In this document: piece by piece, positions 11,994 through 46,222 of the stretch
How positions within the stretch are numbered: position 1 is the stretch's first letter
Layout of the letters: every line of letters starts with the position of its first letter
Assembly (NCBI GenBank): GCA_003507445.1
Contig: DNVR01000019.1
Span: 206,132 to 270,131 of the forward strand
Origin: Candidatus Moraniibacteriota bacterium
GTDB taxonomy: Bacteria > Patescibacteriota > Minisyncoccia > Moranbacterales > GWC2-37-73
Length of the DNA stretch: 64,000 nucleotides
Direction of reading: 5' to 3'
Program-made: the position numbers and the translations under genes
Notes under the pieces: model-generated
The model's database searches: none
What the model was told of the DNA's origin: nothing
Seen by the model: the letters and a program-made list of their open reading frames with translations, nothing else

Positions 11994-12073
11994 AGGTGAT
12001 AAGATGCATCAATGCGATGTGTTCTGTGTTTTTTGGTGGTATAATGGGGTTATAAGCATATTATATAAAACAT

Positions 12074-13456: not shown

Positions 13457-14716
13457 TTATACAAAGGTCAAGGCTGTTCCGGTTTTGCCGGCGCGGCCTG
13501 TTCGTCCGATGCGGTGGATATAATCTTCATATGTTGCAGGCACATCAAAGTTGATCACGTGCGAAACATTTGGAATGTCCAGTCCGCGAGCAGCCACGTC
13601 GGTTGCCACCAAAATTTCAACGTAGTTTTCTTTGAAAAGTTTGAGTGCTTTTTGACGTTTAGCGTGAGATTTGTCTCCGTGAATTGATTGAGCCTTGAAT
13701 CCATTTTTACCCAAAATGATTGAAAGTTTTTCAGCTCCGTGTTTGGTGCGAGAAAAAATCAAAACTTTTGAGAAGTTTGCTTTGCGCAAAAGGTCTTGCA
13801 GGACTTCAATTTTGTCTTCGCCTGGTTTGACGCGCACAACATCCTGATCAATGTTAGCTGCAGTTTCTCGAGTTCGAATTGAAATTTTGATTGGGTCAAC
13901 CAAAAATTCTTGAATCAATTTTTCAATTTCAGGGGCAAGTGTTGCAGAGAAAAACAAAGTTTGTCTTTTTGGCGCAACAAGTGAAAGCAAATATCTAACG
14001 TCAGGCATAAATCCCATATCAAGCATACGGTCTGCTTCATCAAGAACCACATTTGCAAAAGTGTTGAGATGAAGATTTTTGCGTTGAATCAAATCCTTGA
14101 GTCGTCCTGGAGTTCCGATCACAACATTGTAACGTGAGCGAAGACATTCGATTTGAGTTCGAATGTTGGCACCACCAACAACCACCACTGACCCAATGCG
14201 AAGTCCAGCAGCAAAGGCGCGGAATTCTTCTTGAATCTGGATAGCAAGTTCGCGAGTTGGAACAACAACCAAAAGTTTTTCATGAGGATTTTTGATAATC
14301 TTATCAAGCATTGGAAGCAAAAATGCTCCAGTTTTTCCTGTGCCTGTGTTGGCTAGTCCAATTAAATCTTTTCCCTCAAGAATGTGGGGGATGGTTTTAT
14401 CTTGAATTGGAGTTGGGTGCTCAAAGCCACGAGCAGCAATATTTTTCTTGATTGATTCCTCTATTTTGAAATCAGCAAAAATAGTGTCTGGGACATATGC
14501 CTCAGCCTCGACGATTGGTGCCGCTTTATTAATAAATCGGCTGATATCAATATAATTTCCAGTGAAACGCTTTTTGCGACCACCTTGGTTATTGAATGAA
14601 TTTTTTTGTCCGCCTTGGAATGGCGCTCTTGAGCGCGTCGGGCGCGAACTGCCCGCTTTGAAGTTTCTGCTATGCATGTATATTTTAAACAAAACAAACT
14701 GGGAAGAAGCTTCCAA
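13457..14716 (-). CDS. DEAD-box ATP-dependent RNA helicase
   Basis: Q-motif/PTPIQ, Walker A ANTGTGKT, PTRELA, DEAD (VLDEADRML), SAT, HRIGRTGRAG; true start may be MHSRNF (14677). Confidence 0.85.
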   Translation of the reverse strand: MEASSQFVLFKIYMHSRNFKAGSSRPTRSRAPFQGGQKNSFNNQGGRKKRFTGNYIDISRFINKAAPIVEAEAYVPDTIFADFKIEESIKKNIAARGFEHPTPIQDKTIPHILEGKDLIGLANTGTGKTGAFLLPMLDKIIKNPHEKLLVVVPTRELAIQIQEEFRAFAAGLRIGSVVVVGGANIRTQIECLRSRYNVVIGTPGRLKDLIQRKNLHLNTFANVVLDEADRMLDMGFMPDVRYLLSLVAPKRQTLFFSATLAPEIEKLIQEFLVDPIKISIRTRETAANIDQDVVRVKPGEDKIEVLQDLLRKANFSKVLIFSRTKHGAEKLSIILGKNGFKAQSIHGDKSHAKRQKALKLFKENYVEILVATDVAARGLDIPNVSHVINFDVPATYEDYIHRIGRTGRAGKTGTALTFV

Positions 14717-22346: not shown

Positions 22347-22390
22347 TTTGCAACACAAAATCCTTCGTTGTCACAGGCGGAGGATTTTAT

Positions 22391-22412
22391 GTTACGTAGC
22401 ATGCTACGTAAC
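22391..22412. repeat. tandem TACGTA palindrome element (gttacgtagc-at-gctacgtaac)
   Basis: two 10-bp self-palindromes GYTACGTARC separated by AT; 32 nt upstream of ABC ATPase gene. Confidence 0.7.
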
Positions 22413-22443
22413 ATAAAATTATTTTCTGAAAAAAAGGAATTTT

Positions 22444-31374: not shown

Positions 31375-32112
31375 TTGATTATTGAAATTATTATGTCTTA
31401 TCATTTTAAACTCGAACAATTTGAAGGGCCGCTGGATTTGCTTTTGCAACTGACTCAGCAGGAAAAGCTTGATATTACTCGAGTAAGTTTGGCGAAAATT
31501 GCAGATCAATATTTGGCATATATCGCTGAGGCCAAAGACATCACGCTTGCTCATCTGGCTGATTTTTTGTCAGTGGCATCTCGTCTTATTTTGATCAAAT
31601 CCAAAGCCTTGCTTCCGATGTTGGAATTTACTGAAGAGGAAGAGGAGGAAATTAAAGATTTGGAATATCAATTGGCAGAGTATAAAAAATTTAAAGATGC
31701 TTCGGCAAAGATTGCGCCCATTTTTGATTCGCCAAAAGCAAGTTTTGCGCGCGAAGGATTTTTGGGCTTGGCAACACTTTTTTATCCGCCAGAAAATATT
31801 GTTGCTTTTGATTTGCAAAAAGCTTTTGCCAAAGTGTTGGGCGAAATTCCGGTTCAAGAAAAATTGGAAGAAGAAATGGTAAAAGAAGTTCTAACTTTGG
31901 AAGACAGAATTGTCCATTTGCAAAACACCTTGAGAGACCGAGTGCAAACATCATTTTCCGAACTTGTTGCAAATGCAAAAGACAAAGTTGAAATTGTGGT
32001 TTCTTTTCTTGCAATGCTCGAATTGGTAAAACAACGAATCATCCACGTGGAGCAAGGAGAACTATTTTCCGAAATACATCTTAAACACAAAGATCATAAA
32101 AGTGCTACGTAA
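31375..32112 (+). CDS. scpA: segregation and condensation protein A
   Basis: 245 aa; FEGPLDLLLQL N-terminal motif, C-terminal winged helix; likely true start MSYHF (31393). Confidence 0.8.
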   Translation: MIIEIIMSYHFKLEQFEGPLDLLLQLTQQEKLDITRVSLAKIADQYLAYIAEAKDITLAHLADFLSVASRLILIKSKALLPMLEFTEEEEEEIKDLEYQLAEYKKFKDASAKIAPIFDSPKASFAREGFLGLATLFYPPENIVAFDLQKAFAKVLGEIPVQEKLEEEMVKEVLTLEDRIVHLQNTLRDRVQTSFSELVANAKDKVEIVVSFLAMLELVKQRIIHVEQGELFSEIHLKHKDHKSAT

Positions 32113-32130
32113 TTATAGTTCAAAAAAAGC

Positions 32131-32243
32131 TTTTGTTTTGCCTGCTTCCTTTCTCGGCACGCTTCGCAATCGAAGAACTATGATTGCTCGCTAAGAGTTC
32201 GCTGTCGCTCTCTGTTGCCTCGAAAGAAAACAGGCAAAACAAA
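32131..32243 (+). repeat. ~115-nt structured intergenic element E1 (MITE-like or sRNA; second copy at 46104-46222)
   Basis: imperfect 25-bp terminal inverted repeats TTTTGTTTTGCCTGCTTCCTTTCTCGG / CTCGAAAGAAAACAGGCAAAACAAA; internal hairpin gcaatc-GAAGAACUAU-gauugc covaries with the E2 copy. Confidence 0.5.
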
Positions 32244-32436
32244 TTGAACTTTTGAGACTTAGAGTCATAACTTGCATATGATTTGTCAAAAGTGAGTTGG
32301 GTAAAACCAGCTCGTTTTTTATATCCAAAAATCCTGTTTTCCCAGCAGGAAGAGGTTTCTGATTATTGTGTATTAATATTTATAAGATGAAAGAATGTCG
32401 CAAAAAAGTGGGAAAATATCATAATAATTAATATTC

Positions 32437-32477
32437 ACTCAAGTTAAATGGCGGGAGGTTTTGCAATTTAACTGGGT
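32437..32477 (+). promoter_or_regulatory. SD-region leader hairpin (variant of CCCAGUUAAAU/AUUUAACUGGG family) upstream of VOC gene
   Basis: CTCAAGTTAAAT...ATTTAACTGGGTAAAA then ATG 32486. Confidence 0.4.
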
Positions 32478-32485
32478 AAAATCAT

Positions 32486-32902
32486 ATGAAAAATCCAAGA
32501 CCCATACATTTTGAAATCAACGCAATTGATCCTGCGCGCACCGCCAAATTCTATGCGGATGTGTTCGGGTGGGAGTTTGAAAAGTGGGAGACGCCAGAAG
32601 CCAACATGGACTATTGGATGGTTATGACAGGCGACAAGGAAACCATGGGAATCAACGGTGGTATGAGCAAGCAAGACCAGCCTCCTGCCAAAGGAGGAGC
32701 CAATTCATTCATCCCAACAATGGGAGTTTCCAATTTTGACGAATATCACCAAAAGATTCTTTCAGCCGGTGGAACAGTGCAAATGGAAAAGCACGAGATT
32801 CCAACTGTCGGTTTGCATGGATATTACCATGACACCGAAGGCAACATCTTCGGCATCCTCGAACCATCAGAGGAGATGAAAAAAATGGAAGAAACGATGT
32901 AA
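32486..32902 (+). CDS. VOC/glyoxalase/bleomycin-resistance family protein
   Basis: 138 aa; paired beta-alpha-beta-beta-beta modules, HFEINAIDPART N-terminus. Confidence 0.7.
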   Translation: MKNPRPIHFEINAIDPARTAKFYADVFGWEFEKWETPEANMDYWMVMTGDKETMGINGGMSKQDQPPAKGGANSFIPTMGVSNFDEYHQKILSAGGTVQMEKHEIPTVGLHGYYHDTEGNIFGILEPSEEMKKMEETM

Positions 32903-33054
32903 TGATTTCAAAAAGAAATTTCCTGTCACCAGCGCAGGGAATTTTTTTAACTGAAAATTAGAAAAAAGCGTGAATTTGGGAAATTGAAGAATGATTTCGG
33001 GCTTAAAGTAGGTATTCTGCTCCATGCTCCATGTTTCATGTTTTATGATTTCGA

Positions 33055-33130
33055 GCTTGAATTATGGGTAAAATGAGAGTAGAATGGAAATATAAGTCAA
33101 CTGACGTTGTTACGTAGCATGTTACGTAAC
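33055..33130. repeat. 76-bp direct repeat, left flank of GNAT cassette
   Basis: about 95% identical to 33628-33703; ends in the TACGTA tandem palindrome. Confidence 0.75.
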
Positions 33131-33142
33131 AAAATTATATGT

Positions 33143-33601
33143 ATGGAAATCGTGATTAGAAAAACAAATGAATTCGAAAAAGCTTTGGGAATTGCGAAAA
33201 CATTGCCGGAGTTTTTCACGCAGCAAGGGCTGGATGAAATCAAGGTGCAGCTTCCTGATCAAGCAGTATATGGAGCATATGACGGCGAGGAATTGATCGC
33301 CTGCATTAGCTATAAGAAAGTCAATGACTCAACAATTGATATTGCTTTCCTTTTTATGCTGGAGACTTATCATGGAAAGGGCATTGGCACGCGACTTGTT
33401 GAAGAGAGTCTTGCTGTTGAAGGCGGGGAATTCAAGGTTTGCCAGGTTAATACTTTGGCAGAGACTGTTGAAGATGCAGGATATGCAAGAACAAGAAAAT
33501 TTTATGAAAAATTGGGTTTTATTCCAATTGAAATCATCCACCCCTATCCCGGTTGGGGCATGGAAAATCCGTGTCAGATTTATGTGAGATTTTTGAAATA
33601 A
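33143..33601 (+). CDS. GNAT-family N-acetyltransferase
   Basis: 152 aa from MEIVIRK; acetyl-CoA motif HGKGIGTRLVE; the ORF-track start 33107 lies inside the palindrome. Confidence 0.7.
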   Translation: MEIVIRKTNEFEKALGIAKTLPEFFTQQGLDEIKVQLPDQAVYGAYDGEELIACISYKKVNDSTIDIAFLFMLETYHGKGIGTRLVEESLAVEGGEFKVCQVNTLAETVEDAGYARTRKFYEKLGFIPIEIIHPYPGWGMENPCQIYVRFLK

Positions 33602-33627
33602 AGCAGGCCTTGAGTCTGTTTTATTGT

Positions 33628-33703
33628 GCTTGAATTATGGGTGGAATGAGAGTAGAATGGAAATATAAGTCAACTGATGTTGTTACGTAGCATGTTACGT
33701 AAC
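33628..33703. repeat. 76-bp direct repeat, right flank of GNAT cassette
   Basis: gcttgaattatgggtggaatgagagtagaatggaaatataagtcaactgatgttgttacgtagcatgttacgtaac. Confidence 0.75.
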
Positions 33704-33793
33704 AAGGTTTTATTTTTGAAAAATAAGTTATGCACAGTTGTGTTTGAATTTATTGAATGATATAATATCACTGTAAGAGTTTAAAATAAAAAT

Positions 33794-34765
33794 ATGACAC
33801 AAAAAATAATACAAGATATGGCCGTCAGTTTGAATATTCATCCAATTCATCTGCGGGTTTTTATGTCGAACTTTAAAAATGTATCAGCTGAAAATATCGT
33901 ATCGGCATACAAAGAATTCAAAGATGAAAATCCAAAACCGTTTGTAAAGTGGGTTGGAGGAAAAAGGCAATTGCTCAAACAATTTAGAGAGAGAGATTTG
34001 TATCCGCCCTATGATTTTGATCCGAAAACTGCAACTTACTTTGAGCCTTTTGTCGGTGGTGGAGCAATGTTTTTTGATTTGTTACCAAAAAAAGCTGTTT
34101 TGTCTGATATGAATGCCGAATTGGTAACAACTTATAATGTTATTAAAAATGACGTTGAAGGATTAATAAAAAAATTAAAAGAATATCAAAAGAAAAATAA
34201 TAAAGAATATTTTCTCAAAGTTCGTGCGCAAGATTTTAAAAAACTTTCCGATGTTGATGTTGCTGCTCGTTTTATATATCTAAATAGAACTTGTTTCAAT
34301 GGAATGTTTCGCGTTAATGGTAGTGGTCAATTTAATGTTCCATTTGGGGATAACAAGAATCCGCTTATTTGTGATGAAGAAAATTTGCGGAAAGCTCATG
34401 ATGCAATGAAGTATACTAAAATCTTGCATCAGGACTATGGAAAAGTTTTAGAAAAAGCAAAAAAAGGAGATTTTGTTTATTTTGATCCACCTTATTGTCC
34501 GGTTAACGCAACGTCTAGTTTTACGAGTTATACCAAGGAGGGATTTCTTGAAAAACAACAAATAGAATTGAAGGATGCCTTTATGGAGCTCCACAAGAGA
34601 GGTTGCTATGTTATGCTTTCAAATTCTGATACGCCATTTATCAATGAATTATATTCTGGACTAGGCAAAAAAATAAAAATTCACACTGTTGATGCTGGGC
34701 GTTCTATTAATTCAAAGGGAACAGGAAGAGGAAAAATTAAGGAGGTTGTCGTGATAAATTATTAA
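33794..34765 (+). CDS. dam: DNA adenine methyltransferase (Dam/D12 class N6-adenine MTase)
   Basis: 323 aa; KWVGGKRQLL, EPFVGGGA, YLNRTCFNGMFRVN, catalytic DPPY (VYFDPPYCP). Confidence 0.85.
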   Translation: MTQKIIQDMAVSLNIHPIHLRVFMSNFKNVSAENIVSAYKEFKDENPKPFVKWVGGKRQLLKQFRERDLYPPYDFDPKTATYFEPFVGGGAMFFDLLPKKAVLSDMNAELVTTYNVIKNDVEGLIKKLKEYQKKNNKEYFLKVRAQDFKKLSDVDVAARFIYLNRTCFNGMFRVNGSGQFNVPFGDNKNPLICDEENLRKAHDAMKYTKILHQDYGKVLEKAKKGDFVYFDPPYCPVNATSSFTSYTKEGFLEKQQIELKDAFMELHKRGCYVMLSNSDTPFINELYSGLGKKIKIHTVDAGRSINSKGTGRGKIKEVVVINY

Positions 34766-34774
34766 AAAATAATT

Positions 34775-36481
34775 ATGGCAAATTTTACAAAAACAGAGCC
34801 TTATACATTTGCAGCCCTTTGTGATTCTTTTAAAATGTTTAAGATACCAAATTTTCAGAGACCATATAAATGGACAAATAAAAATATCCAAGAATTTTGG
34901 AGCTCAATTATTTCAAATCAGAGTCCATATTTCATTGGGAATATAGTTGCAGTAAGTGACGAAAGTCTTCTTGTTATTGATGGGCAACAGAGATTAACAA
35001 CAATTAATTTGTTGTTAATAGCCCTAAGGGATACATATTCAAATATAAAAGTAAAAAAAAGCGATAAAACTAAAGTCAGTAGAACTATTGCAAGAATAGA
35101 TAAATATCTGAAGGATGATGATCTTTCGAAATCGGTAGAGTCTGAATATAAACGATTAGAACTTGGCAAAGATATGTATCAGAAAATTTTCAACATGTTG
35201 GTTGATAACGAAATCGATAACATTGATATAAAAAAGTTAACTGATAACCAAAAACGATTAATAAACAACTATGAAATATTAAAAAAATTTATACTATCAG
35301 AAATTAAGGGATCAGAGCTGAATAGTTTGGATGGTATTTTAAACAAAGTTTTAAATTTGCAGTTTATTGTTATTGTTTGTGCAACTGAAAATGATATATA
35401 TGGTATTTTCGAAGGATTTAATTCTACAGGATTGGGCTTGTCGGTAGCAGATCTTGTAAAAAATTCTATTTTAAAAGGAAGTGCGAGAGATACAAAAATG
35501 CAATCATTAATTGAGGAATTATGGAATGAAATGGAGTTAATGTTTGATGAAACAATTGCTTCAAAATTTCCTAAATTTCTTAGGCACCAATGGATTTCAG
35601 TTTATGGCCATGTTTCTATGTCCAACCTTTATAGGGAAATAAAGTCTGAGAAGATTGATAATAAGACACCGCAGATAATTAAGGAATATGTGGAATCAGT
35701 TTTATTTGATGCTAAGATATATCTTGGGATGCTATATTGGAAACACGAAAAAAACCTGGACTTGCCAAAAGATATATTGGAAGAAATATTTAAATTCAGA
35801 TTTTTGCAAAATGACCAGGTTTATGAGGTGTTGTTGACTTATCATCGGGCATTTAAAGAAAAAAGGATAACCCAATCTTTTTTTAAAAAATTTCTTAAAC
35901 GACTCTGGATTTTTACTGTTAGAGCTAGGTTCGTATCTGTAAATCCTTCTAAATATGAAAAAATCTTTTCAACACAATGTAAAGAAATTTACGAATGCAA
36001 AAATATTGAAGAAGTTTCTGCTGAAACTGAACGTTTTTTTTCAAAATTAAAAAAACTTGTTTCATCTGATGAGCAGTTTGTTGAGAATTTTATTGCAGAT
36101 GTTAAGTATGGGAAGGATAATAAATTAATATCTCTAGCAATTTCAGACTTAATGAGTTATGATAATCCAGAAATAAGCATAAAAGAGCCAGAAATAGAAC
36201 ACATTTTACCTCAAGAACCTAAAAAATGGGGATTTGCCAAGAGTGAAGTAAAAGATTATGTTGATAAAATTGGAAATTTAACTTTATTATTTAGTGATTT
36301 TAATAAAAAAAATAGCAATGAAACCATGTCATTTAAAAAAGCTATATTTAAAAAATCAAAACTTAAGTTCAACGTTGATATAGCAGATAAATGGGGCGAT
36401 ATTTTCGTTAAAGACTTCAAGAATGCTATTGAGCGGAGAAGTATTGATATGACAAAAAGAATTGAAAAAATTTGGAAATAA
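34775..36481 (+). CDS. GmrSD-like type IV restriction enzyme (DUF262 N-terminal / DUF1524 HNH-like C-terminal)
   Basis: 568 aa; DUF262 DGQQRLTT motif, C-terminal His-Me finger EIEHILPQ...IGNLTLL. Confidence 0.8.
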   Translation: MANFTKTEPYTFAALCDSFKMFKIPNFQRPYKWTNKNIQEFWSSIISNQSPYFIGNIVAVSDESLLVIDGQQRLTTINLLLIALRDTYSNIKVKKSDKTKVSRTIARIDKYLKDDDLSKSVESEYKRLELGKDMYQKIFNMLVDNEIDNIDIKKLTDNQKRLINNYEILKKFILSEIKGSELNSLDGILNKVLNLQFIVIVCATENDIYGIFEGFNSTGLGLSVADLVKNSILKGSARDTKMQSLIEELWNEMELMFDETIASKFPKFLRHQWISVYGHVSMSNLYREIKSEKIDNKTPQIIKEYVESVLFDAKIYLGMLYWKHEKNLDLPKDILEEIFKFRFLQNDQVYEVLLTYHRAFKEKRITQSFFKKFLKRLWIFTVRARFVSVNPSKYEKIFSTQCKEIYECKNIEEVSAETERFFSKLKKLVSSDEQFVENFIADVKYGKDNKLISLAISDLMSYDNPEISIKEPEIEHILPQEPKKWGFAKSEVKDYVDKIGNLTLLFSDFNKKNSNETMSFKKAIFKKSKLKFNVDIADKWGDIFVKDFKNAIERRSIDMTKRIEKIWK

Positions 36482-37107
36482 ATTTTAAAAATATGAATAA
36501 TTACAATTTAAGATTACTTGATAACTCGGAGGTTATTAAATGGTGCTATGAGGGTGTTACGGATATTTCTTTGAAGAATACTGAAAGTGAAAAAAAATTA
36601 AAAGAATCAAAGGAGATAGAAAAAGAATGGGGCAATAGCGTTATGAATACCACAGATGGAAAGCAGTGGACAACTTTGCTTTGTCAAAATTTAGTCATGG
36701 AGGCACTTGTTAGGCTTGGTAGAAAAAATGTCAGACAAACTACTGCAAAAAAAAGTACTCTTAGGGATAAAAAATACGATCCAGATTTAGAATGTGACGA
36801 ATTTGTTTATGAGGTGAAGGGCAGAAGTTGGTCTACCCCTGGAACTGCTGGTGAAAAAATACTTGGAGTGCCCTTGAAATATGGTGAATTGCCACGTTTA
36901 TACAAAAAACCACTTCAAATAGTTTTGGTAGGATATCAGGAATATGAAGCTCGAGAAAAATTCGCTTTCGGTGATTTATTAGACAAAAATAATCAAACAA
37001 CTGAATTACGAGACAGCCTAGCTTTTTACAAGGAGCACAATATTGAATATGTTGCCTTTACAGATATTTTGAAAAAAATAGGTTTTGATTATGGCTGTTG
37101 GAATTAA
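36472..37107 (+). CDS. putative type II restriction endonuclease (PD-(D/E)xK)
   Basis: 211 aa; YDPDLECDEFVYEVKGR fits PD...ExK; immediately upstream of MTase; alternative start 36493. Confidence 0.45.
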   Translation: MEINFKNMNNYNLRLLDNSEVIKWCYEGVTDISLKNTESEKKLKESKEIEKEWGNSVMNTTDGKQWTTLLCQNLVMEALVRLGRKNVRQTTAKKSTLRDKKYDPDLECDEFVYEVKGRSWSTPGTAGEKILGVPLKYGELPRLYKKPLQIVLVGYQEYEAREKFAFGDLLDKNNQTTELRDSLAFYKEHNIEYVAFTDILKKIGFDYGCWN

Positions 37108-37122
37108 AGATGATTTAAAAAA

Positions 37123-37869
37123 ATGAAAACAAAAATAAAATTGCATCCAGATGAATTTGAAATGGAATGTACCACTGTGTGGTCATTCCCTAGGCGTGGA
37201 AACTGGGCAACACATAAATCAGATTGGCGAGGAAATTGGGCACCAGAAGTGGTGCGTAATTTAATCCTGCGTTACTCAAAGGAAAGCGATCACATTCTTG
37301 ATTGTATGATTGGCGGTGGAACAACCGCAATAGAGGCAAAAATATTAAATCGTCACATCACTTGTATTGATGTTAATGAAGAGGCACTAGAACGTACGAA
37401 AAAATCATTAGAATTTGAGGTTGAAAACAATTCCAAACAAAGAATAATGAAGTGCGACGCTCGCAATATGGCATTCATTAAAAATGAGGAAATAGATTTT
37501 GTTCTTACTCATCCACCGTATGTTGATATTATAAAGTATAGCGAAGGAAAAATTAAAGAAGATTTATCTGGCATTCATAGTCTGGATGAATTTTGTGATG
37601 AAATTGAAAAAGTTGCCAGTGAATTATTTCGCGTTTTGAAAAAAGGAAAATATTGTGCAATTTTGATGGGGGATACTAGAAGAGAAAAAATGTATCAACC
37701 GTTGGCCTTTAAGGTTATGGAACGATTTTTAAAACAAGGTTTTGTATTAAAAGAGGATATTATTAAAAAACAACATAACTGCAAAGCCACCGGCTTTTGG
37801 GTAAAACGTTCCCAAGAAAGTAATTTTCTCTTGATTATGCATGAGCATCTTTTTGTATTTCAGAAATGA
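37123..37869 (+). CDS. DNA methyltransferase (N4-C/N6-A, gamma-like motif order)
   Basis: 248 aa; motif I DCMIGGGTTAIEA precedes motif IV LTHPPY. Confidence 0.75.
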   Translation: MKTKIKLHPDEFEMECTTVWSFPRRGNWATHKSDWRGNWAPEVVRNLILRYSKESDHILDCMIGGGTTAIEAKILNRHITCIDVNEEALERTKKSLEFEVENNSKQRIMKCDARNMAFIKNEEIDFVLTHPPYVDIIKYSEGKIKEDLSGIHSLDEFCDEIEKVASELFRVLKKGKYCAILMGDTRREKMYQPLAFKVMERFLKQGFVLKEDIIKKQHNCKATGFWVKRSQESNFLLIMHEHLFVFQK

Positions 37870-37879
37870 TTTTTTTATT

Positions 37880-38305
37880 ATGAAAACAAAGAAAGAAAAA
37901 AAGTTATCAGAAGAGTTTGTGAAAAACTCTGTTATTAAATATCTCTCCTCTAACGGCTGGGGTCATTTTAAATTTGGTGGATTAAGAGAGCATGGTGTTG
38001 ATATAAAAGCAAAAAAACAAAATTATGATCGGTATTTTCTTATTGAGGCAAAAGGCGAAGGAAGTCGTAGGGAAATGAATGAAAATTATTTTGTTTATTC
38101 ATTAGGGCAAATAATAACTCGTATGACTTCTGGCGGAACAACAAGAAATTATTATGGACTTGCACTTCCGGATTCAATAGCAAAAATTGCGCTTAGGCGC
38201 ATTCCATGGCAAGTAGCAAAAAAGTTGCTGCTGTATGTTTTTTCTGTTGATTCAAAAGGACAAGTGAAACAAAATTCTTGGCAGGATATAAAAAACAAAA
38301 AATAA
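37880..38305 (+). CDS. PD-(D/E)xK nuclease-like hypothetical protein
   Basis: 141 aa from MKTKKEKK; HGVDIKAK...YFLIEAKGEG fits D...ExK core. Confidence 0.4.
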   Translation: MKTKKEKKLSEEFVKNSVIKYLSSNGWGHFKFGGLREHGVDIKAKKQNYDRYFLIEAKGEGSRREMNENYFVYSLGQIITRMTSGGTTRNYYGLALPDSIAKIALRRIPWQVAKKLLLYVFSVDSKGQVKQNSWQDIKNKK

Positions 38306-38308
38306 TTT

Positions 38309-38330
38309 GCTACGTAACATGCTACGTAAC
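38309..38330. repeat. tandem TACGTA palindrome element (gctacgtaac-at-gctacgtaac)
   Basis: same family; 60 nt upstream of AbrB-like gene. Confidence 0.7.
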
Positions 38331-38357
38331 AAAATAAAAAATAAAAATTAATCTAGA

Positions 38358-38378
38358 TTCCGGATTTGCTGTCCGGAA
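38358..38378. promoter_or_regulatory. candidate operator: perfect inverted repeat TTCCGGA-N7-TCCGGAA
   Basis: 13 nt upstream of the AbrB/MazE-like ORF start; typical autoregulatory operator geometry. Confidence 0.4.
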
Positions 38379-38390
38379 TGATAAAGAAGT

Positions 38391-38555
38391 ATGAAAAAGA
38401 AAGAAGAACTTGTTCGCAAAGTGACTGGAGTTGGGAAGCGAAGCCTCTCAATCGTCATCCCATCCGAAATCGTCGCCGAACTCGGGATTAAAGAACGCCA
38501 AAAAATGACCTTCAAAATCGACCGCAAGAAAATAATTATAAGTGATTGGAAATAA
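38391..38555 (+). CDS. AbrB/MazE/SpoVT-family small DNA-binding protein (antitoxin-like)
   Basis: 54 aa, not in ORF track; KRSLSIVIPSEIVAELGIKERQKMTF matches swapped-hairpin AbrB/MazE domain. Confidence 0.55.
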   Translation: MKKKEELVRKVTGVGKRSLSIVIPSEIVAELGIKERQKMTFKIDRKKIIISDWK

Positions 38556-38567
38556 TTCTATTTATAT

Positions 38568-39995
38568 ATGCGTGAAAAACACATAACACAGGAATCATCA
38601 AAATTGCAAAATTCTAATTTATCTGGGATAAAATTTGAAAACGATCAAACTTATTCCAAGAGCATTTCGCAAGAGTTGGCTGAAATGAGGATACAACAAG
38701 AAAAAAAAGATATTGACGAAATAGATAAAATTATGGGATTTTTTCGTGTACCTGAAAGAAATAATGAAGTACATGTTTTTGATGCTGGCGAAAAATTTGA
38801 TCCATATTCTGAAATTGATAAAATTAGGGTTGGAAGTAAAAAAGAAAAAAGACATAATCTGGAAATATATAAGAAGAAATTAATATTTCAGCGTAAGGGG
38901 ATTACTGAAATGCAAACTCATTTGTACGAGTTAATGCAAAAGAAAGAGACAATGACGGTTGAAATGCTTAAGCAATCCATTGCCGACCTTGAAGATAAAT
39001 ATGCATTATGCGATGAGCAAAGACGTATTTTTGATTCTGCAATAAAAATATATGCCGAAAGACATAATGGTATAGTTGAAAATACTCGAGATTGCATTGA
39101 TGAAGAAGGGAACATTGATGGAAAAAAATTATATGAGAAAATTTTTGGTAGACAACCTTATGGGGATGTTAATGTTGAAATATTGCCAATTACTATATAT
39201 CTAAGAACTTTTGATTTTGAAGATTATGCGTATGTTCATTCAAATGCATATAAAAACAAAAGAGAAATTGATGATGATGAATTTAAAAATGCTAGTATGT
39301 CAGGAGGAGTAAAATTGTGGAACTCTGGATTTTCTGGTCTGGAAAGCGTTGTAACACTTCAAAACGCTAATAATGTCGTTAAAAGAATGTTTAAGAGTAT
39401 TTCTGATGAAACACGTGATCATGAAGATCAGCATAATTTTAATGATCTTATCGATGAAGCGTTTATAAATAACGGTAGCGCATCATCTCCTATTGGCGAA
39501 AACGAGGAAATATTACGGGATGTGGATGAAAAAGAAAAAAAGAAACAAGACGCTGAAAGTCGTGACATAGGCATTGAAATGATGATAGGGGATGAGATGT
39601 GCGCATTTTTTAAAACCGGTAATTCAGCTCAATATATTCATGACGCAATATTAAAAAAAGATACTATATATGAATATGGGAAGAATTATAGAAAAGAAAA
39701 AAGGAAACATGGAGAGCAATTTTCTCAAAATTACAAAGACCTTGTTGATGGAGGAATTGTTGCTATGTTTGATTTACTCGATCATGGTTATTCGCGAAAA
39801 GAGGTTATAGCCTTGCTATTTTTTGATCTTCCTTCACAGTGGGGAAAAGTTGTTTCTAGAGTTTTGGAAAGAAGAAAAACAACAACAGAAGAAAAACAAG
39901 ATAGAAAAAAAATTGTGAATATTATTGATAGAATCAGTAGACATATTACTGGGAAGTTTAGTGATATCTATGATTTTTTTAGGGTAAGATTATAA
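38568..39995 (+). CDS. hypothetical 475-aa protein, candidate effector paired with AbrB/MazE-like gene
   Basis: starts 13 nt after the AbrB-like stop; charged, Lys/Glu-rich; no recognisable catalytic motif. Confidence 0.5.
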   Translation: MREKHITQESSKLQNSNLSGIKFENDQTYSKSISQELAEMRIQQEKKDIDEIDKIMGFFRVPERNNEVHVFDAGEKFDPYSEIDKIRVGSKKEKRHNLEIYKKKLIFQRKGITEMQTHLYELMQKKETMTVEMLKQSIADLEDKYALCDEQRRIFDSAIKIYAERHNGIVENTRDCIDEEGNIDGKKLYEKIFGRQPYGDVNVEILPITIYLRTFDFEDYAYVHSNAYKNKREIDDDEFKNASMSGGVKLWNSGFSGLESVVTLQNANNVVKRMFKSISDETRDHEDQHNFNDLIDEAFINNGSASSPIGENEEILRDVDEKEKKKQDAESRDIGIEMMIGDEMCAFFKTGNSAQYIHDAILKKDTIYEYGKNYRKEKRKHGEQFSQNYKDLVDGGIVAMFDLLDHGYSRKEVIALLFFDLPSQWGKVVSRVLERRKTTTEEKQDRKKIVNIIDRISRHITGKFSDIYDFFRVRL

Positions 39996-40030
39996 AATAA
40001 TATGGGTATTGAAAAAATAATGATTTCAGA

Positions 40031-40453
40031 TTGGAAATAAAAAATATGAGAATTGTGGTTAGGGCTATAATTAAAAATGACGATTCACTGTTGGTAATTA
40101 AGAGAATTAAAAATGGGAAAACATATTTTGTTTTTCCTGGCGGCGGGGTTGATGATGGAGAAAGTCATCCCATTGCACTAAAAAGAGAATGCAAAGAAGA
40201 ATTGGGCCTAGATGTTTCAGTATTGGAATTTATGTATGATTTTGATTTTATCAAAAAGGATAATGAGCCACAGAAAGAATATTTTTATCAATGCGATATA
40301 TTAGGAGGAAAACTCGGAAGTGGTGAAGGAGAAGAATATAGCCCAGACCGCAATAGTGGAATTTATGAGCCAATGTGGATAAAGTTAGAGGAACTTTCAG
40401 ATTTGGATTTGAGACCAATCGAAATAAAAAATAAATTAATAGCTGAATTATAA
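40031..40453 (+). CDS. NUDIX hydrolase
   Basis: Nudix box GGGVDDGESHPIALKRECKEELGL; likely true start ATG 40046 (MRIVV). Confidence 0.75.
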   Translation: MEIKNMRIVVRAIIKNDDSLLVIKRIKNGKTYFVFPGGGVDDGESHPIALKRECKEELGLDVSVLEFMYDFDFIKKDNEPQKEYFYQCDILGGKLGSGEGEEYSPDRNSGIYEPMWIKLEELSDLDLRPIEIKNKLIAEL

Positions 40454-40456
40454 TTA

Positions 40457-40478
40457 GCTACGTAACATGTTACGTAGC
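40457..40478. repeat. tandem TACGTA palindrome element (gctacgtaac-at-gttacgtagc)
   Basis: same family. Confidence 0.7.
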
Positions 40479-40533
40479 ACTCCAGAGAAATAGAAGAGAT
40501 TTTACGGGGTAAAAAATAACCAATCAAACATAG

Positions 40534-40564
40534 CATTCACTCAACGTCGGCCGTGGAAGAGTGA
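40534..40564. repeat. GC-rich 31-bp repeat CATTCACTCAACGTCGGCCGTGGAAGAGTGA (copy 2)
   Basis: upstream flank of PaaX-like gene. Confidence 0.6.
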
Positions 40565-40622
40565 TGTAAGGTGGGATATTATTAAGATGGAGATCTTTAT
40601 TTTTTTATAGTATAATCGTGGT

Positions 40623-41210
40623 ATGTATAGGCCAGGAGTTGTTCAAAAGAAAATATTGTTGGCGCTTTTAGGTGGGGTTGCTTTGGGTGTGTCTTCATCG
40701 CCTCGACAATATTTTAGTACTTTGCGAAAATTGAAAAAAGAATGGGTAAAAATAAATCCACAGAATTTTAATCGCTCCATCAAGAGTCTTTCGAAGGAAA
40801 AACTTATAAGCGAGATCGAGCTTCCTGATGGTTCTTTTAAATTGACCTTAACTGAAAAAGGCAAGAAGCAGGCTCGCGTGCTGAATATCTTCGGAAAGTC
40901 GATAGATTTCAAGAAGCCGAAGAAATGGGATGGCAAGTGGCGAGTTGTTATGTTTGATATCCCTGAAAAAGATAGACTTTTTCGCGACGTGCTCAGAAAT
41001 CACTTGAAGGATTTGAAATTTAGGAAATTGCAGCACAGCGTTTTTGTTTCACCTTATCCTTTCGAGAAACCTATCTTGGAATTGGTCGCTCTGTATTCGG
41101 CGGAAAAATTTGTCAGAGTCATAACTGCACAGAAATTGGATAATGGTAAATATCTCGAAAAAATGTTTTTCAAAAAAAACAAACACTCACTCAACGTCGG
41201 CCGTGGATGA
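40623..41210 (+). CDS. PaaX-like winged-helix regulator domain protein
   Basis: 195 aa; N-terminal wHTH-like region; C-terminal WDGKWRVVMFDIPEKDRLFRDVLRNHLKDLKFRKLQHSVFV resembles the PaaX C-terminal (also Cas2-like) fold motif; last 9 codons run into repeat copy 3. Confidence 0.4.
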   Translation: MYRPGVVQKKILLALLGGVALGVSSSPRQYFSTLRKLKKEWVKINPQNFNRSIKSLSKEKLISEIELPDGSFKLTLTEKGKKQARVLNIFGKSIDFKKPKKWDGKWRVVMFDIPEKDRLFRDVLRNHLKDLKFRKLQHSVFVSPYPFEKPILELVALYSAEKFVRVITAQKLDNGKYLEKMFFKKNKHSLNVGRG

Positions 41211-41215
41211 GTGAG
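41184..41215. repeat. GC-rich 31-bp repeat CACTCACTCAACGTCGGCCGTGGATGAGTGAG (copy 3)
   Basis: downstream flank of PaaX-like gene. Confidence 0.6.
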
Positions 41216-41240
41216 TTAATAACAAATAAATAATTTCAGA

Positions 41241-41918
41241 TTGGAAATAAAAAATATGGAAAAAAGTAAGATAAAAGCAATAATATTTGATATGGATGGT
41301 GTGTTGGTTAATTCTGAACCAATACATGAAAGAGCGGAAATGGAGATTTGTCTTGAGTTTGGTATGAAGGTTTCAAAACGTGAATGGGATGGTTTTCGGG
41401 GCAAGAAGCTTGAAGACATCTTTTCATACGCCAGCAAAAAATATGGAACTGGAAATGAGCCTATTGAGGAGATGATTGAGCGTAAGATTGCTCGGTATTT
41501 GTCATTGGCACTTGCTGAAATGGATCTCGTCCCCGGTGCATATGATTTTCTGCAGAAGCTAAAAAAGAATGGAAAATATAGCTACGCGCTGACGACCTCA
41601 GGCAGGAAGGTACAGCAGGAAAAAATTCTTTCAAAATTCAAACTTGCTGATTATTTTGAAATCATGATTACTTCGGATGATGTGAAGAATGGCAAGCCTC
41701 ATCCAGAGCCATATGCAATCACAGTGCAAAAACTGAATGAGCTGCCCGAGGCATGCTTGGTTATCGAAGATTCTGATAATGGAATTTTGTCTGCCAAGGC
41801 TGCAGGATGTTTTGCTTGCGGGATCACGACGACATTTGGTCGCGAGAAATTGGAAGGTGCAGGCGCAGACATGGTAGTTTCTGATTTTTTTGAATTATCA
41901 AAAATATTATTCGATTAG
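41241..41918 (+). CDS. HAD-superfamily hydrolase (beta-phosphoglucomutase-like, subfamily IA)
   Basis: motif I IIFDMDGVL, motif III K, motif IV EDSDNG; likely true start ATG 41256. Confidence 0.8.
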   Translation: MEIKNMEKSKIKAIIFDMDGVLVNSEPIHERAEMEICLEFGMKVSKREWDGFRGKKLEDIFSYASKKYGTGNEPIEEMIERKIARYLSLALAEMDLVPGAYDFLQKLKKNGKYSYALTTSGRKVQQEKILSKFKLADYFEIMITSDDVKNGKPHPEPYAITVQKLNELPEACLVIEDSDNGILSAKAAGCFACGITTTFGREKLEGAGADMVVSDFFELSKILFD

Positions 41919-41926
41919 TATTACAT

Positions 41927-41948
41927 GCTACGTAACATGCTACGTAGC
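41927..41948. repeat. tandem TACGTA palindrome element (gctacgtaac-at-gctacgtagc)
   Basis: same family; last copy before scpB. Confidence 0.7.
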
Positions 41949-42094
41949 AACCCAATGAAATAATATTAAATTTCATGGGTTAAAAAATAAAAAGCATTTA
42001 AACAATCTCACATCCCATAGGGAATTACGTAGCTAATTACATAATTCCGAAAAAGCTGGTATACTTTCAGTAAGTAATAAAAAAATTAAAAGCT

Positions 42095-42643
42095 ATGGAA
42101 TTGGAAAAATTACAAGGGGTTATTGAAAGCATTTTGTTTGTTAGTGGGGAGCCGATTAAGAGGGCGAAGTTGGCAAAGATCGTGGGGCTTGGGGCTGAAG
42201 AAGTTGATGCTGCTTTGGCTGTGTTGAGCGAGAAATATGCTTTGGCGGGCAGCGGGCTTAGTTTGCTTGTTAAGGGCGAGGAAGTGCAATTGGTTTCTAA
42301 TCCTGAAAATGCTGAGTTTATTGAAAAATTGGTTAAAAGTGAACTTCAAGATTCGCTTTCTAATGCTGCTTTGGAAGTCGTTTCAATCATTGCATATCGC
42401 GGTCCAATTTCGAAAACTGAAATTGAGGCAATTCGAGGTGTTAATTGCGCTTATACACTCAGAAATCTGCTTTTGAGAGGGCTTATTGAGCGAAGTGACA
42501 ATCCAAATGATTCTCGAGGCTATGTTTATGCGATTACATTTGATTTTCTTAAAAAGTTGGGGATTGAATCCGTGAAAAATCTTCCAGAGTATGGTATACT
42601 TTCAGCAGATGAGAGAATTAATTCAATAATCTCAAAAGAATAA
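42095..42643 (+). CDS. scpB: segregation and condensation protein B
   Basis: 182 aa; two winged-helix repeats, ILESILFVSGEPI N-terminal motif. Confidence 0.8.
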   Translation: MELEKLQGVIESILFVSGEPIKRAKLAKIVGLGAEEVDAALAVLSEKYALAGSGLSLLVKGEEVQLVSNPENAEFIEKLVKSELQDSLSNAALEVVSIIAYRGPISKTEIEAIRGVNCAYTLRNLLLRGLIERSDNPNDSRGYVYAITFDFLKKLGIESVKNLPEYGILSADERINSIISKE

Positions 42644-44883: not shown

Positions 44884-44964
44884 ATTCATATAACATAAAA
44901 CATATAACATGTAACAAATAAAAACAGATAGTGAGTAGCGCATAGTATTAATTTTTTTTGCTAT

Positions 44965-46103: not shown

Positions 46104-46222
46104 GTTTTTTTGTTTCGCCTGTTTCCTCTTTCGGCACGCTCTTGGCCGAAAGCTATGGCCAATCGCTCTTGCCTGCTATTTCGCAGCCAACGGCCTCAAG
46201 AGAAAACAGGCTCACAAAAAAC
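46104..46222 (+). repeat. structured intergenic element E2 (paralog of E1 at 32131-32243)
   Basis: same terminal arms; internal hairpin uuggcc-GAAAGCUAU-ggccaa differs from E1 by compensatory changes; ORF 46055..46279 overlapping it is judged spurious. Confidence 0.5.

Follow-up and report, generated by a model that had tools for sequence, protein, structure and literature searches.

The window analysed here, a stretch of 64,000 nucleotides from the genome of a groundwater Candidatus Moranbacteria (CPR/Patescibacteria), carries scpA with its stop at 32112 and scpB with its first base at 42095. The 9,982 bp separating them agree exactly with the ~10-kb split described by an earlier sequence-only reading of this DNA. 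The features are as follows.

31375..32112, + strand, scpA (PF02616, 8.5e-27; 239 aa from 31393 in the public annotation)
32131..32243, ~113-nt element bounded by 28-nt terminal inverted repeats, immediately within the left island edge
32486..32902, + strand, VOC/glyoxalase-family gene (PF00903)
33055..33149, + strand, putative promoter-plus-operator unit, copy 1 (95-nt direct repeat with 91% identity to copy 2)
33143..33601, + strand, GNAT acetyltransferase (PF13508, PF00583)
33628..33722, + strand, putative promoter-plus-operator unit, copy 2 (palindrome at 33681-33704)
33794..34765, + strand, Dam-family N6-adenine DNA methyltransferase (PF02086, 3e-64; TIGR00571, 1.7e-86)
34775..36481, + strand, GmrSD-type (DUF262/DUF1524) type IV restriction enzyme (PF03235 and PF07510, GmrSD_N and GmrSD_C; PADLOC match HEC-06/Orf5)
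36472..37107, + strand, type II restriction endonuclease candidate, 211 aa (PADLOC REase_II PDLC03457, 6.2e-29; 36493-37107 in the public annotation)
37123..37869, + strand, N4/N6 DNA methyltransferase (PF01555; PADLOC MTase_II, 3.6e-91)
37853..38305, + strand, PD-(D/E)xK-like nuclease-fold protein, 150 aa (from homologues, AF2 model and Foldseek)
38308..38331, palindrome copy overlapping the predicted promoter of the AbrB-like gene
38391..38555, + strand, 54-aa AbrB/MazE (SpoVT-AbrB) fold protein, 'sm54' (PF04014, 27.3 bits, cutoff 24.7)
38568..39995, + strand, 475-aa protein of an unannotated family with an invariant HExxH...E
40014..40040, + strand, AbrB-like 3'-end remnant (encodes ..ISDWK*), a direct repeat with 38529-38555
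40046..40453, + strand, NUDIX hydrolase (PF00293; PADLOC candidate PDC-S07, 1.4e-16)
40456..40479, palindrome copy, 3 bp past the NUDIX stop and ~110 bp upstream of the PaaX-like promoter-like site
40623..41210, + strand, PaaX_M (Cas2-like middle domain) protein (PF20803, 1.2e-22)
41256..41918, + strand, HAD-family hydrolase (PF13419, 3.5e-35)
41926..41949, palindrome copy, 7 bp past the HAD stop
42023..42094, + strand, native scpA-scpB spacer (75% homologous to the uninterrupted L012 spacer)
42095..42643, + strand, scpB (PF04079, 6.7e-44)

Profile matches (Pfam, TIGR, PADLOC) and the PD-(D/E)xK-like fold bear out or refine the gene content that had been read from the sequence, from VOC to HAD. 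The N4/N6 methyltransferase is the partner of the preceding endonuclease candidate, which itself has no match in Pfam or PDB. The earlier label of a defence island holds for the restriction genes, but about half of the island genes encode small-molecule enzymes rather than defence functions. Likewise, GC outliers are present (VOC 46% and GmrSD 29% against 36.7 ± 3.4% for the core), but the composition is heterogeneous and not uniformly deviant. No integrase or transposase was found in the island or in the scanned flanking genes. Misassembly was considered as a cause of the split and rejected: all 13 contigs read that encode an identical ScpB carry this layout, and the gene order is the same at the three places shown (ENA and Logan assemblies), the other contigs being collapsed as similar.

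scpA and scpB are indeed normally adjacent, as had been supposed. They are contiguous in 34 of 37 informative Moranbacteria/Parcubacteria loci, with gaps of ~12-306 bp and followed by Dac-GT4-PGK, the same synteny that lies downstream of scpB in the window. The adjacent pairs span the sampled diversity, down to 29% ScpA identity and including a Halanaerobiaceae genome, and none of the informative relatives has the island's content as ancestral synteny. Three relatives carry differing inserts at this site, supporting the proposed insertion hotspot:

L002, Fic / Dam-DpnII-DUF6997-MTase-two unknowns / AbrB-NUDIX
L006, SRPBCC / VOC / RadC / Fic / SDH protease ... MTase
L013, a 548-aa Schlafen AlbA_2/HATPase_c_4 protein

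The window, L002 and L006 islands share some segments and differ in most genes; flanking-gene identity is mosaic close to the junction, and the island-free L001 (95% ScpA identity) is nested inside the island-bearing clade. The view of an insertion inside a conserved operon needs one qualification. In the native spacer lies a degenerate double palindrome of AT type (42023-42046). Its second unit provides the -35 (ATTACA) of a predicted extended -10 promoter (TGGTATACT) for scpB, the whole promoter-like site extending over 42036-42065. Since scpB retains its own promoter-like site, the scpA-scpB 'operon' is not necessarily crippled.

Comparison of the segments shows how modules differ. The L006 VOC protein is 95% identical to that of the window. 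GNAT is a single-gene cassette bracketed by the two 95-nt repeat copies, and L002 has a single repeat copy without GNAT. Copy 1 contains a promoter-like TTGAAT-17-TAGAAT (33057-33085) and a palindrome (33108-33131); copy 2 precedes the Dam-GmrSD-REase-MTase-nuclease run and is homologous to L002 12249-12352, where it also stands ahead of Dam. Dam is 97% identical between window and L002 and the N4/N6 methyltransferase 96%, with GmrSD and REase_II between them in the window versus DpnII and DUF6997 in L002; GmrSD fills the DpnII position, and the endonuclease candidate has no homology to the DUF6997 protein that takes its position in L002. These swap breakpoints lie at gene borders where there is no repeat. 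Another window/L002 breakpoint, at 38306, is beside the palindrome at 38308-38331. Farther right, an AbrB remnant stands directly before NUDIX, and in L002 NUDIX follows AbrB without the 475-aa gene in between. A second AbrB remnant (41224-41250) repeats upstream of HAD, PaaX_M 3'-end remnants (HSLNVGRG) occur at 40534-40564 and 2402-2432, and in L171 a PaaX_M gene is two genes downstream of the AbrB homologue. At the left edge, the 113-nt element has copies at other intergenic sites in L006, L005, L007 and L004; the 373-nt spacer containing it has a fold z-score of -3.8 as a whole, and an Rfam search with the element gave no match.

The recurring palindromes pointed out earlier are real. YTACGTARCATGYTACGTAR occurs in five perfect copies in the island and two elsewhere in the window, with none expected in shuffles, giving 5 copies per 10 kb versus 2 per 54 kb. 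The element consensus, 24-26 bp, is TTG-YTACGTAR-CATG-YTACGTAR-CAA, with two and sometimes three 12-bp TACGTA units. The last codons of scpA, GCT ACG TAA, are a half-copy of this unit (half-site GCTACGTAAT at 32104-32113), an ending shared by the island-bearing L002 and L006 and not present in the island-free L001, and the uninterrupted L012 spacer carries ATTACGTAAT-TA-ATTACGTAAT. Two island copies directly follow stop codons, and the next promoter-like site is over 100 bp away. No copies occur in ~20 kb each of L001, L003 and L005, close relatives that lack the island, and other relatives have 0-3 per roughly 20 kb. Because the L006 island lacks the double motif and L013 has no motif, the hotspot does not depend on the motif.

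The motif is associated with AbrB-like genes. sm54, missing from the public annotation, has weak AbrB matches in PDB and 34 homologues. Its predicted promoter consists of a -35-like GTAACA inside the palindrome copy at 38308-38331, 17 bp, and TAATCT; more generally, upstream of AbrB-like genes the GTAACA within the motif is followed after 16-17 bp by TATAAT or TAATCT. The motif lies within ~130 bp upstream of 20 of 27 AbrB-like ORFs in the loci, and all four independent groups of protein-selected homologues (L171, L172, L173/174 and L175/176) have it, from overlapping the called start to ~40 bp upstream; the homologues in L002, L004, L009 and L164 are likewise preceded by it. In two related loci the motif variant tracks the protein variant, AATTACGTAATT with RKLTKIG... 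and TGYTACGTARCA with RKVTRVGKRS.... Across 124 instances, flanking bases outside the search pattern show 94-96% conservation; the flanks are rich in T upstream and in A downstream, and no T-run follows the palindrome. The contigs span 31-62% GC. There were no matches among 2.9 million viral contigs, and no recombinase or RAYT-like neighbour recurred within 2.5 kb of 126 instances. In a metagenome sample the motif lies 24 times between convergent and 4 times between divergent genes (background 71 versus 69), and most copies do not adjoin an AbrB-like gene, so that promoter-operator function alone cannot account for every copy.

We consider it rather probable that this is a horizontally acquired mosaic island in an integrase-free exchange hotspot, turned over by recombination, with the palindromes as a putative AbrB-like operator. 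The comparisons above establish the island, its differing content from genome to genome and the association of the motif with AbrB-like genes. The hotspot is of the ordinary integrase-free gene-exchange kind. Homologous or short-homology recombination, probably following uptake of DNA, would turn over its content, with crossovers in the conserved core genes on either side and in short modules repeated within the island, namely the 95-nt promoter/operator unit, AbrB-like gene copies or 3'-end remnants, and the conserved methyltransferase genes. The repeat-less swaps at gene borders between Dam and the second methyltransferase also fit this recombination picture. We infer this route from the breakpoints and the lack of a recombinase only; a recombinase in trans, for example Xer, may be involved, the genome in view being 64 kb. 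As for the palindromes, they are most likely regulator binding sites, not insertion scars or att sites, because they stand upstream of four of four AbrB groups, overlap a -35-like hexamer, have no T-tail, no viral matches and no recurrent recombinase. Their position and co-occurrence suggest that they could be the operator of the island's own 54-aa AbrB/MazE-fold protein. This protein would repress transcription from its own promoter, whose -35 and spacer are covered by the motif; other motif copies might extend its action to the GNAT promoter, the PaaX-HAD pair, scpB and the Dam-GmrSD-REase-MTase-nuclease run. If true, the shared copies would give the island one common control. The small repressor RptR binds tandem short palindromes and controls defence islands (PMC12255303); the role proposed for the 54-aa regulator is analogous to that of RptR and of C-proteins, but the fold is different, being AbrB/MazE-type here. 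The new point is the palindromes as candidate operator for the island's own small regulator, the hotspot itself being of known kind.

Let us consider instead site-specific recombination as the builder of the island: a recombinase encoded elsewhere in the genome would insert and excise modules at the 24-bp palindrome, whose inverted arms of 9-11 bp flank a 6-bp centre (RCATGY), and the island would be an array of cassettes comparable to integrons, Xer/dif IMEX elements or Acinetobacter pdif modules. Palindromes do lie at module borders, one of them exactly at a window/L002 breakpoint, a half-site caps scpA in three related island-bearing genomes with a degenerate full site before scpB, L012 has an 'empty' double palindrome between adjacent genes, palindrome-containing direct repeats flank GNAT, the L009 AbrB gene is bracketed by two motif copies, and the bias towards gene 3' ends would fit inserted DNA. 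Nevertheless, we regard this as quite unlikely, given several swaps with no palindrome at the breakpoints, the inserts of L006 and L013 from which the motif is missing, and the lack of a recombinase in the island, in the other scanned window genes or recurrently near the motif. Furthermore, the GNAT repeat runs 53 nt past the palindrome and includes a promoter, the motif is just 24-26 bp without the R''/L''-L'/R' structure of integron attC, viral contigs have no matches, and the tight, fixed distance to AbrB-like start codons is what an operator would predict. The 3' bias might alternatively mean that the palindromes mark 3' ends as conserved sequences without a dedicated regulator, whether as hairpin terminators, as RNA-stability elements, as DNA-uptake sequences or as REP-like repeats that a RAYT-type enzyme has spread, the module-border position merely reflecting gene ends. 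The convergent enrichment and divergent depletion, several copies 3-10 bp past stop codons, T-runs after the AT-type variants in L007 and L009, the terminator-like label that a simple scan gives two island copies, and a Y1 transposase gene ~2 kb from one homologue locus would all suit this idea. It is rather unlikely in our judgement, since the 124 instances have no T-run, the sequence is conserved across contigs of widely different GC, unlike ordinary terminators, no RAYT-like neighbour recurs, the motif is upstream of every protein-selected AbrB homologue, and its density follows the AbrB gene and the island, not the genome.

It is highly improbable that the content is ancestral and that contiguous scpA-scpB arose elsewhere by repeated deletion. 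The shared segments of the window, L002 and L006 islands and the nested position of L001, which makes at least one loss or replacement likely, speak for it; the 34 of 37 adjacent loci down to 29% ScpA identity largely refute it, and most genes differ among the three related islands, L013 has an unrelated insert and composition is mosaic. A further idea supplements rather than replaces the favoured mosaic-island reading: the AbrB-like gene and the 475-aa protein could form a functional pair, either a repressor and its anti-repressor protease, the latter de-repressing the island when stress or phage is signalled, as in ImmR/ImmA and DdrO/IrrE, or a toxin-antitoxin-like defence module. The two genes are 12 bp apart, and L164, another Moranbacterium, has the AbrB homologue and motif upstream of a 52% homologue of the 475-aa protein, beside Peptidase_S24 (LexA-type) and IMS (Y-family polymerase) genes. 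The 475-aa protein has no match in Pfam or PDB; its family comprises 834 representative clusters at E<=1e-3, and H285, E286, H289 and E343, the HExxH...E, are invariant across 35 diverse members. The protein may be a zinc metallopeptidase. In L083 the gene after another AbrB homologue encodes DUF5700, an unrelated putative Zn peptidase. We hold such a pair to be unlikely, as neither an AbrB gene nor the motif is near the 475-aa homologues of L165, L168 and L169, NUDIX follows the 93% identical AbrB gene in L002, and genes downstream of AbrB homologues are very diverse, PGK appearing three times. In addition, the 475-aa protein has no detectable homology to the L083 peptidase, and its AF2 model (pLDDT 45) was unusable, so that no fold was obtained.

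The PD-(D/E)xK-like protein belongs to a family highly conserved across CPR lineages, with 549 homologues, the best 120 of which are 60-85% identical to the query, and some are fused to HARE-HTH (PF05066). D41, E56 and K58 are invariant, and its AF2 model (pLDDT 85) has XisH as the best Foldseek match (E 3.9e-4, TM 0.52), followed by Hjc, splicing endonucleases and restriction endonucleases.

The borders of the 9,982-bp island were confirmed by profile searches, with scpA (PF02616) ending at 32112 and scpB (PF04079) starting at 42095, and the gene content that the sequence-only reading had assigned to this interval held up and could be sharpened as follows.

Island genes and their profile matches
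Island: VOC and GNAT genes, from profile search
From 33794: Dam, TIGR00571, 1.7e-86
Island: GmrSD, one 568-aa protein with both domains, PF03235 (DUF262) 8e-36 and PF07510 (DUF1524) 1.1e-15
36472-37107: 211-aa protein, sole match the PADLOC type II REase model (REase_II), 6e-29
Directly after the 211-aa protein: N4/N6 MTase, PADLOC MTase_II, 4e-91
37853-38305: 150-aa protein
38391-38555, + strand: 54-aa protein, PF04014 (AbrB/MazE), scoring above the gathering score
38568-39995: 475-aa protein
Island: NUDIX, PaaX_M/Cas2-like protein and HAD, from profile search

The defence content is clustered (PADLOC, Pfam), comprising the GmrSD type IV enzyme, the type II REase with its MTase and the Dam MTase, plus a PD-(D/E)xK-like protein. 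The N-terminal DUF262 ParB-like NTPase and C-terminal DUF1524 HNH-like domains of the 568-aa protein are the layout of a predicted GmrSD type IV enzyme, and the adjacency of the candidate REase to the MTase is that of a putative type II restriction-modification system. PDB sequence searches with the REase candidate and the 150-aa protein returned no matches. The 150-aa family comprises at least 549 proteins, for the most part from CPR; the best 120 of the 549 homologues share 60-85% identity with the query, some with a HARE-HTH fusion. Since D41, E56 and K58 are invariant across 27 sequences of this family and a confident structural model (pLDDT 85) has XisH, Hjc, splicing endonucleases and restriction enzymes as best matches, at a TM of only ~0.4-0.5, the earlier label of an extra PD-(D/E)xK protein is reasonable, and fold and D...(D/E)xK motif together make this protein a probable member of that nuclease superfamily. 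Compositional deviation, also considered as a mark of the island, was found in part: GC is widely spread, from 29% (GmrSD) to 46% (VOC) against 36.7 ± 3.4% in core genes, but codon usage is only mildly and inconsistently deviant.

The window has low GC (~36%), genes nearly all on the + strand and a steadily positive GC skew, and by its ScpA homologues it belongs to Candidatus Moranbacteria, in the Parcubacteria of CPR/Patescibacteria. An identical ScpB protein was found by exact-protein look-up in 13 contigs, three of them at listed places and the others similar. The three listed places come from ENA and Logan assemblies, one of them a groundwater metagenome, and have identical gene order from scpA to scpB, so the arrangement is not an assembly artefact and is seemingly fixed in that population.

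To place the island among relatives, 42 ScpA-relative loci (handles L001 onwards) were retrieved with 10 kb on either side, and all window proteins were mapped onto each. In 34 of the 37 informative loci scpA and scpB are adjacent, with a gap of ~12-306 bp, followed by Dac, GT4 and PGK, and this adjacency persists down to 29% ScpA identity; the left border MFS-scpA and the right border scpB-Dac-GT4-PGK are kept in most of the 42. Three loci carry inserts that differ from each other. That of L002 (90% ScpA identity) holds Fic, Dam-DpnII-DUF6997-MTase, proteins of 236 and 1175 aa lacking an assignment, and AbrB-NUDIX; that of L006 holds SRPBCC, VOC, RadC, Fic, an SDH-type protease, DUF6680 and a 692-aa MTase and extends past 10 kb; that of L013 is unrelated, 2.2 kb long, and encodes a Schlafen AlbA_2/HATPase_c_4 protein. 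The nearest relative by ScpA, L001 (95%), is insert-free and nested within the clade of L006, L002 and the window, and the last 400 bp of scpA show an abrupt shift in nucleotide identity to L002 and L006. The suggestion that a defence island occupies an insertion hotspot inside a normally contiguous pair is thus supported by the comparison of relatives it called for: common core borders, variable or absent content and at least two recognised defence systems. With its fast-changing content, the scpA-scpB interval has the features of a gene-exchange hotspot of the general kind that Oliveira et al. 2017 (PMC5635113) described; Patescibacteria islands bearing R-M genes have also been reported already (PMC12455944). 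Splitting of the pair is probably harmless, since scpB retains a promoter-like site.

The turnover has left visible scars. Between the window (33794-37869) and L002 (12424-15872), Dam and the second, N4/N6 MTase are conserved (94% and 89% nucleotide identity, 97% and 96% protein identity) and the intervening genes are not: GmrSD and REase_II lie there in the window, DpnII and DUF6997 in L002, and the REase_II and DUF6997 proteins, both directly upstream of the MTase, show no homology. The breakpoints of this swap fall at gene borders without any repeat. Dam in the window, with no adjoining REase where L002 has DpnII, has lost its cognate partner and now adjoins a type IV enzyme. GATC avoidance, tried as a mark of long-term Dam/DpnII pressure, was uninformative (observed/expected 0.87). 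Elsewhere, GNAT is enclosed by two 95-nt repeats, 91% identical, and L002 has a single copy of this repeat; the 475-aa gene is preceded by the AbrB gene's end and followed by a 27-nt duplicate of it (..ISDWK*), and in L002 NUDIX directly follows the AbrB gene without the 475-aa gene in between; HAD is preceded by a second AbrB 3'-end remnant. A 26-31-nt repeat, CACTCAACGTCGGCCGTGGAAGAGTG, codes for the C-terminus (HSLNVGRG) of the PaaX_M protein and occurs at window 2402-2432, 40534-40564 and 41184-41214 and at L002 20601-20631; some of these copies are isolated remnants, which suggests repeated recombination within the ends of PaaX-like genes. No integrase, transposase or other recombinase domain, including Phage_integrase/IntI, was found by Pfam search of the island genes, two minus-strand genes and 20-odd flanking genes, nor a xer gene among the window genes scanned. 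From these repeats, gene-end remnants and repeat-free swaps we infer recombination between short shared segments without a dedicated site-specific system.

The recurring palindromes, already apparent from the sequence, are present as five perfect copies in the island (33108, 33681, 38308, 40456 and 41926), with two more in the window at 2351 (one mismatch) and 22390, where none is expected by chance. Their consensus is TG-YTACGTAR-CATG-YTACGTAR-CA. In addition, the scpA stop codon carries a half-site, and a degenerate AT-type copy is present at 42023-42046. The uninterrupted L012 spacer between scpA and scpB, which holds ATTACGTAAT-TA-ATTACGTAAT, is homologous to 42023-42094, so an AT-type copy in the spacer probably predates the insertion. 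A scan of metagenome contigs with the palindrome pattern gave at least 118 loci, of 31-62% GC. Across 124 instances the bases outside the search pattern (TTG...CAA) are 94-96% conserved, 17 instances have a third in-phase unit, and the palindrome is not followed by a T-run. The element is therefore a real palindrome, conserved over 26 bp, rather than an intrinsic terminator. Rfam searches (gathering threshold for the whole window, E-value for the island) gave nothing relevant, so the repeats belong to no known RNA family.

What do these palindromes do? One reading takes them as sites of a site-specific cassette system. Integrons have an IntI tyrosine recombinase gene next to the array and an attC site of ~55-140 bp (R''-L''/L'-R') after every cassette, and IMEX/pdif modules are each bounded by 28-bp dif-like sites (11-6-11) recombined by XerC/D. 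Arms of 9-11 bp about a 6-bp centre can be made out in the motif, and the island shares with such systems single-orientation modules, recurring palindromic separators and an 'empty' site in a relative, L012; the half-site at scpA, an AbrB gene flanked by palindromes in L009 and one breakpoint exactly at a palindrome lend this reading some further support. However, no recombinase recurs among the ORFs within 2.5 kb of motif instances, swaps happen without the motif, and the inserts of L006 and L013 are free of it. Integrons in particular are unlikely, as the repeats are perfect 24-26-bp palindromes without attC-like arms and no IntI adjoins the array in the island or the scanned flanking genes. 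Unlike integron and pdif sites, the element also keeps a constant distance from one gene family, on its upstream side. A phage att site was dropped because 2.9 million viral contigs held no match, and a parS-like site (TGTT..ACGT..AACA), considered because of the SMC link, disagrees with copies that track the island and the AbrB gene, in tandem at promoters.

The favoured reading is that of an operator. The 54-aa AbrB-like protein scores 27.3 bits against PF04014 (gathering score 24.7), has weak PDB matches to AbrB N-domains (E 0.01) and homologues precomputed as PF04014, and is thus predicted to have a SpoVT/AbrB (MazE_antitoxin) domain. Its gene is uncalled in the gene tables of the three listed assemblies, and small regulators of this type may be under-annotated in CPR genomes. 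At loci selected by the motif, a copy lies within ~130 bp upstream of 20 of 27 AbrB-like ORFs. Because this selection was made by motif, homologues were then selected by protein, and the motif was immediately upstream in all four independent groups (L171, L172, L173/174 and L175/176), ~28-40 bp from the start in three and overlapping the called start of an 81-aa version in L172; the homologues of L002, L004, L009 and L164 also have it upstream. The right-hand unit contains a -35-like GTAACA, followed after 16-17 bp by TATAAT (L164) or TAATCT (window), and in L173 TATAAT starts 3 nt past the motif. Where the protein is divergent, in L004 and L009 (RKLTKIG..., not RKVTRVGKRS...), the motif is of the AT type. 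When the ORFs within 2.5 kb of motif instances (n=678) were clustered, AbrB-like proteins were the sole recurrent family.

Within the island, one copy overlaps the predicted promoter of the AbrB-like gene, and two follow consensus-like promoters (TTGAAT-17-TAGAAT) at a distance of ~25 nt, one such unit preceding GNAT and the other the Dam-GmrSD-REase-MTase-nuclease run; two come after NUDIX and HAD, and the degenerate copy provides the -35 of an extended -10 promoter-like site for scpB. The genes after AbrB homologues differ at nearly every locus (PGK three times, pyruvate kinase, SDR, MTase, RhuM, Fic, Mrr-type nucleases, peptidases), with no conserved adjacent toxin. Because of this diversity the protein is not a classical antitoxin, although it shares with AbrB/MazE antitoxins of type II TA the domain, a size of ~50-80 aa and a putative palindromic operator in its own promoter. 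All this is read most simply as a small repressor that would control its own promoter and have its operator at further sites as well. Most palindrome copies have no neighbouring AbrB gene, and in the metagenome loci the palindrome is commoner between convergent genes (24 versus 4 divergent; background 71 versus 69). This bias may mean that the palindrome is carried by DNA insertions, which occur preferentially at gene ends; alternatively, the palindrome may have a second role as roadblock or recombination anchor.

Could the adjoining 475-aa protein belong to the switch? A word-indexed search found three proteins only, giving a near-ORFan look, but an exhaustive profile search recovered 834 clusters. 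Profile searches gave no Pfam or PDB relatives. All of 35 diverse members share H285, E286, H289 and E343, and this HExxH...E pattern is a putative metallopeptidase-like (gluzincin-like) signature. The pairing with the AbrB gene and the motif recurs in another Moranbacterium, L164; the pair is missing at three other loci with homologues of the 475-aa protein. The AF2 model built from 3 sequences is unusable (pLDDT 45). A switch made of repressor and protease is therefore given a low probability. Comparison of the 475-aa protein with the L083 peptidase by hhalign showed no homology.

We infer a palindrome/AbrB module solely from position and co-occurrence, and consider it possible, if rather doubtful, that a ~54-aa AbrB-fold family and the strictly conserved 24-26-bp TACGTA double palindrome form an undescribed regulatory module, widespread in CPR, that travels with cassettes and serves both as one repressor per island and as portable homology. 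Such a module would accompany accessory and defence cassettes beside HsdR, Mrr, R-M, PaaX_M and NUDIX genes. Whole islands might then be placed under a single repressor, possibly relieved by the adjoining HExxH protein. Its copies, as portable homology, would let cassettes accumulate at hotspots (scpA/scpB, GT4/PGK) without an integrase. As a separate observation, the AbrB homologue and palindrome of L171 (2501-4370) and L172 (1-3495) are flanked on one side by a helicase or HsdR gene and on the other by Mrr_cat/NA-iREase1 nuclease genes, followed in L171 by a PaaX_M gene; the co-occurring gene families are those of the window island.

A functional precedent for the putative control, in a different fold, comes from RptR (PMC12255303): this small helical repressor controls a defence island and binds to repeats in tandem that contain TAGCTA. 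As with RptR, C-proteins and BrxR/CapW (PMC12255303, PMC9122601), a small in-island regulator and its site are conserved together in many genomes near R-M, Mrr and HsdR genes, with tandem short palindromic units over the promoter (TAGCTA in RptR, TACGTA here); in contrast, the 54-aa protein has the predicted swapped-hairpin AbrB/MazE fold instead of the helical RptR, HTH C-protein or WYL fold, and many motif copies lie away from promoters. The turnover resembles that of integrase-free hotspots (PMC5635113; E. coli, PMC10121019) in variable content at one core-flanked interval, fast exchange, mixed defence and accessory genes and no recognisable mobile-element machinery. It differs in its streamlined CPR host, the split scpA-scpB pair, and the internal promoter/operator repeats and gene-end remnants as apparent recombination anchors. 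The Patescibacteria islands of PMC12455944 share the phylum, aquifer habitat and restriction-modification genes, and competence uptake was proposed there as the route; those islands were predicted from composition, without a defined site-specific hotspot, junctions or regulation, whereas the present comparison maps the empty site, the alternative contents and the repeats.

The wider interest is twofold. CPR/Patescibacteria have tiny genomes and were long thought poor in defence systems; at the hotspot mapped here, close relatives exchange restriction systems and small enzymes with no mobile-element genes involved, in keeping with uptake of DNA and recombination as the chief way in which genes are gained. 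The more useful lead, and the most interesting remainder of the locus, is the conserved palindrome/AbrB pairing, a testable candidate for island co-regulation in an uncultured lineage, whose 24-bp palindrome offers a sequence tag for finding accessory cassettes in CPR metagenomes.

Several other features of the window and its relatives may be recorded. A ~113-nt element with 28-nt terminal inverted repeats occupies differing intergenic positions in different Moranbacteria; it shows compensatory changes at a few base pairs and no Rfam match, and could be MITE-like or a structured RNA. The GT4-PGK spacer is a second small hotspot.

Copies of the ~113-nt element and contents of the GT4-PGK spacer
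Window 32131-32243; L006 3721-3835; L005 8604-8715; L007 ~13885-14000; L004 368-406: ~113-nt element
Window 46108-46140: ~113-nt element, partial copy
Window 44884-44964: GT4-PGK spacer
L009 13665-14115: spacer with palindrome-AbrB gene-palindrome
L004 8668-8966: spacer with palindrome-AbrB gene
L015 13621-13741: spacer with palindrome only
L007 13699-14095: spacer with split palindrome and 113-nt element
L001 and L005: short plain spacers

At window 2351-7223, a palindrome copy and a PaaX-end remnant are followed by SDR, MazG, HIT and histidine phosphatase genes, in a run that includes an 808-aa SMC_N/AAA_13/AAA_15 ATPase and may be another accessory/defence cluster. GC peaks at 8001-9000 (0.45) and 11001-12000 (0.43), and the ORF at 8352-8918 (49% GC) is atypical in its codon usage. 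Finally, the perfect palindrome at 22390-22413 has a class II aminoacyl-tRNA synthetase gene on one side and an ABC-2 type exporter operon on the other, with the ATG 31 bp downstream of the palindrome.
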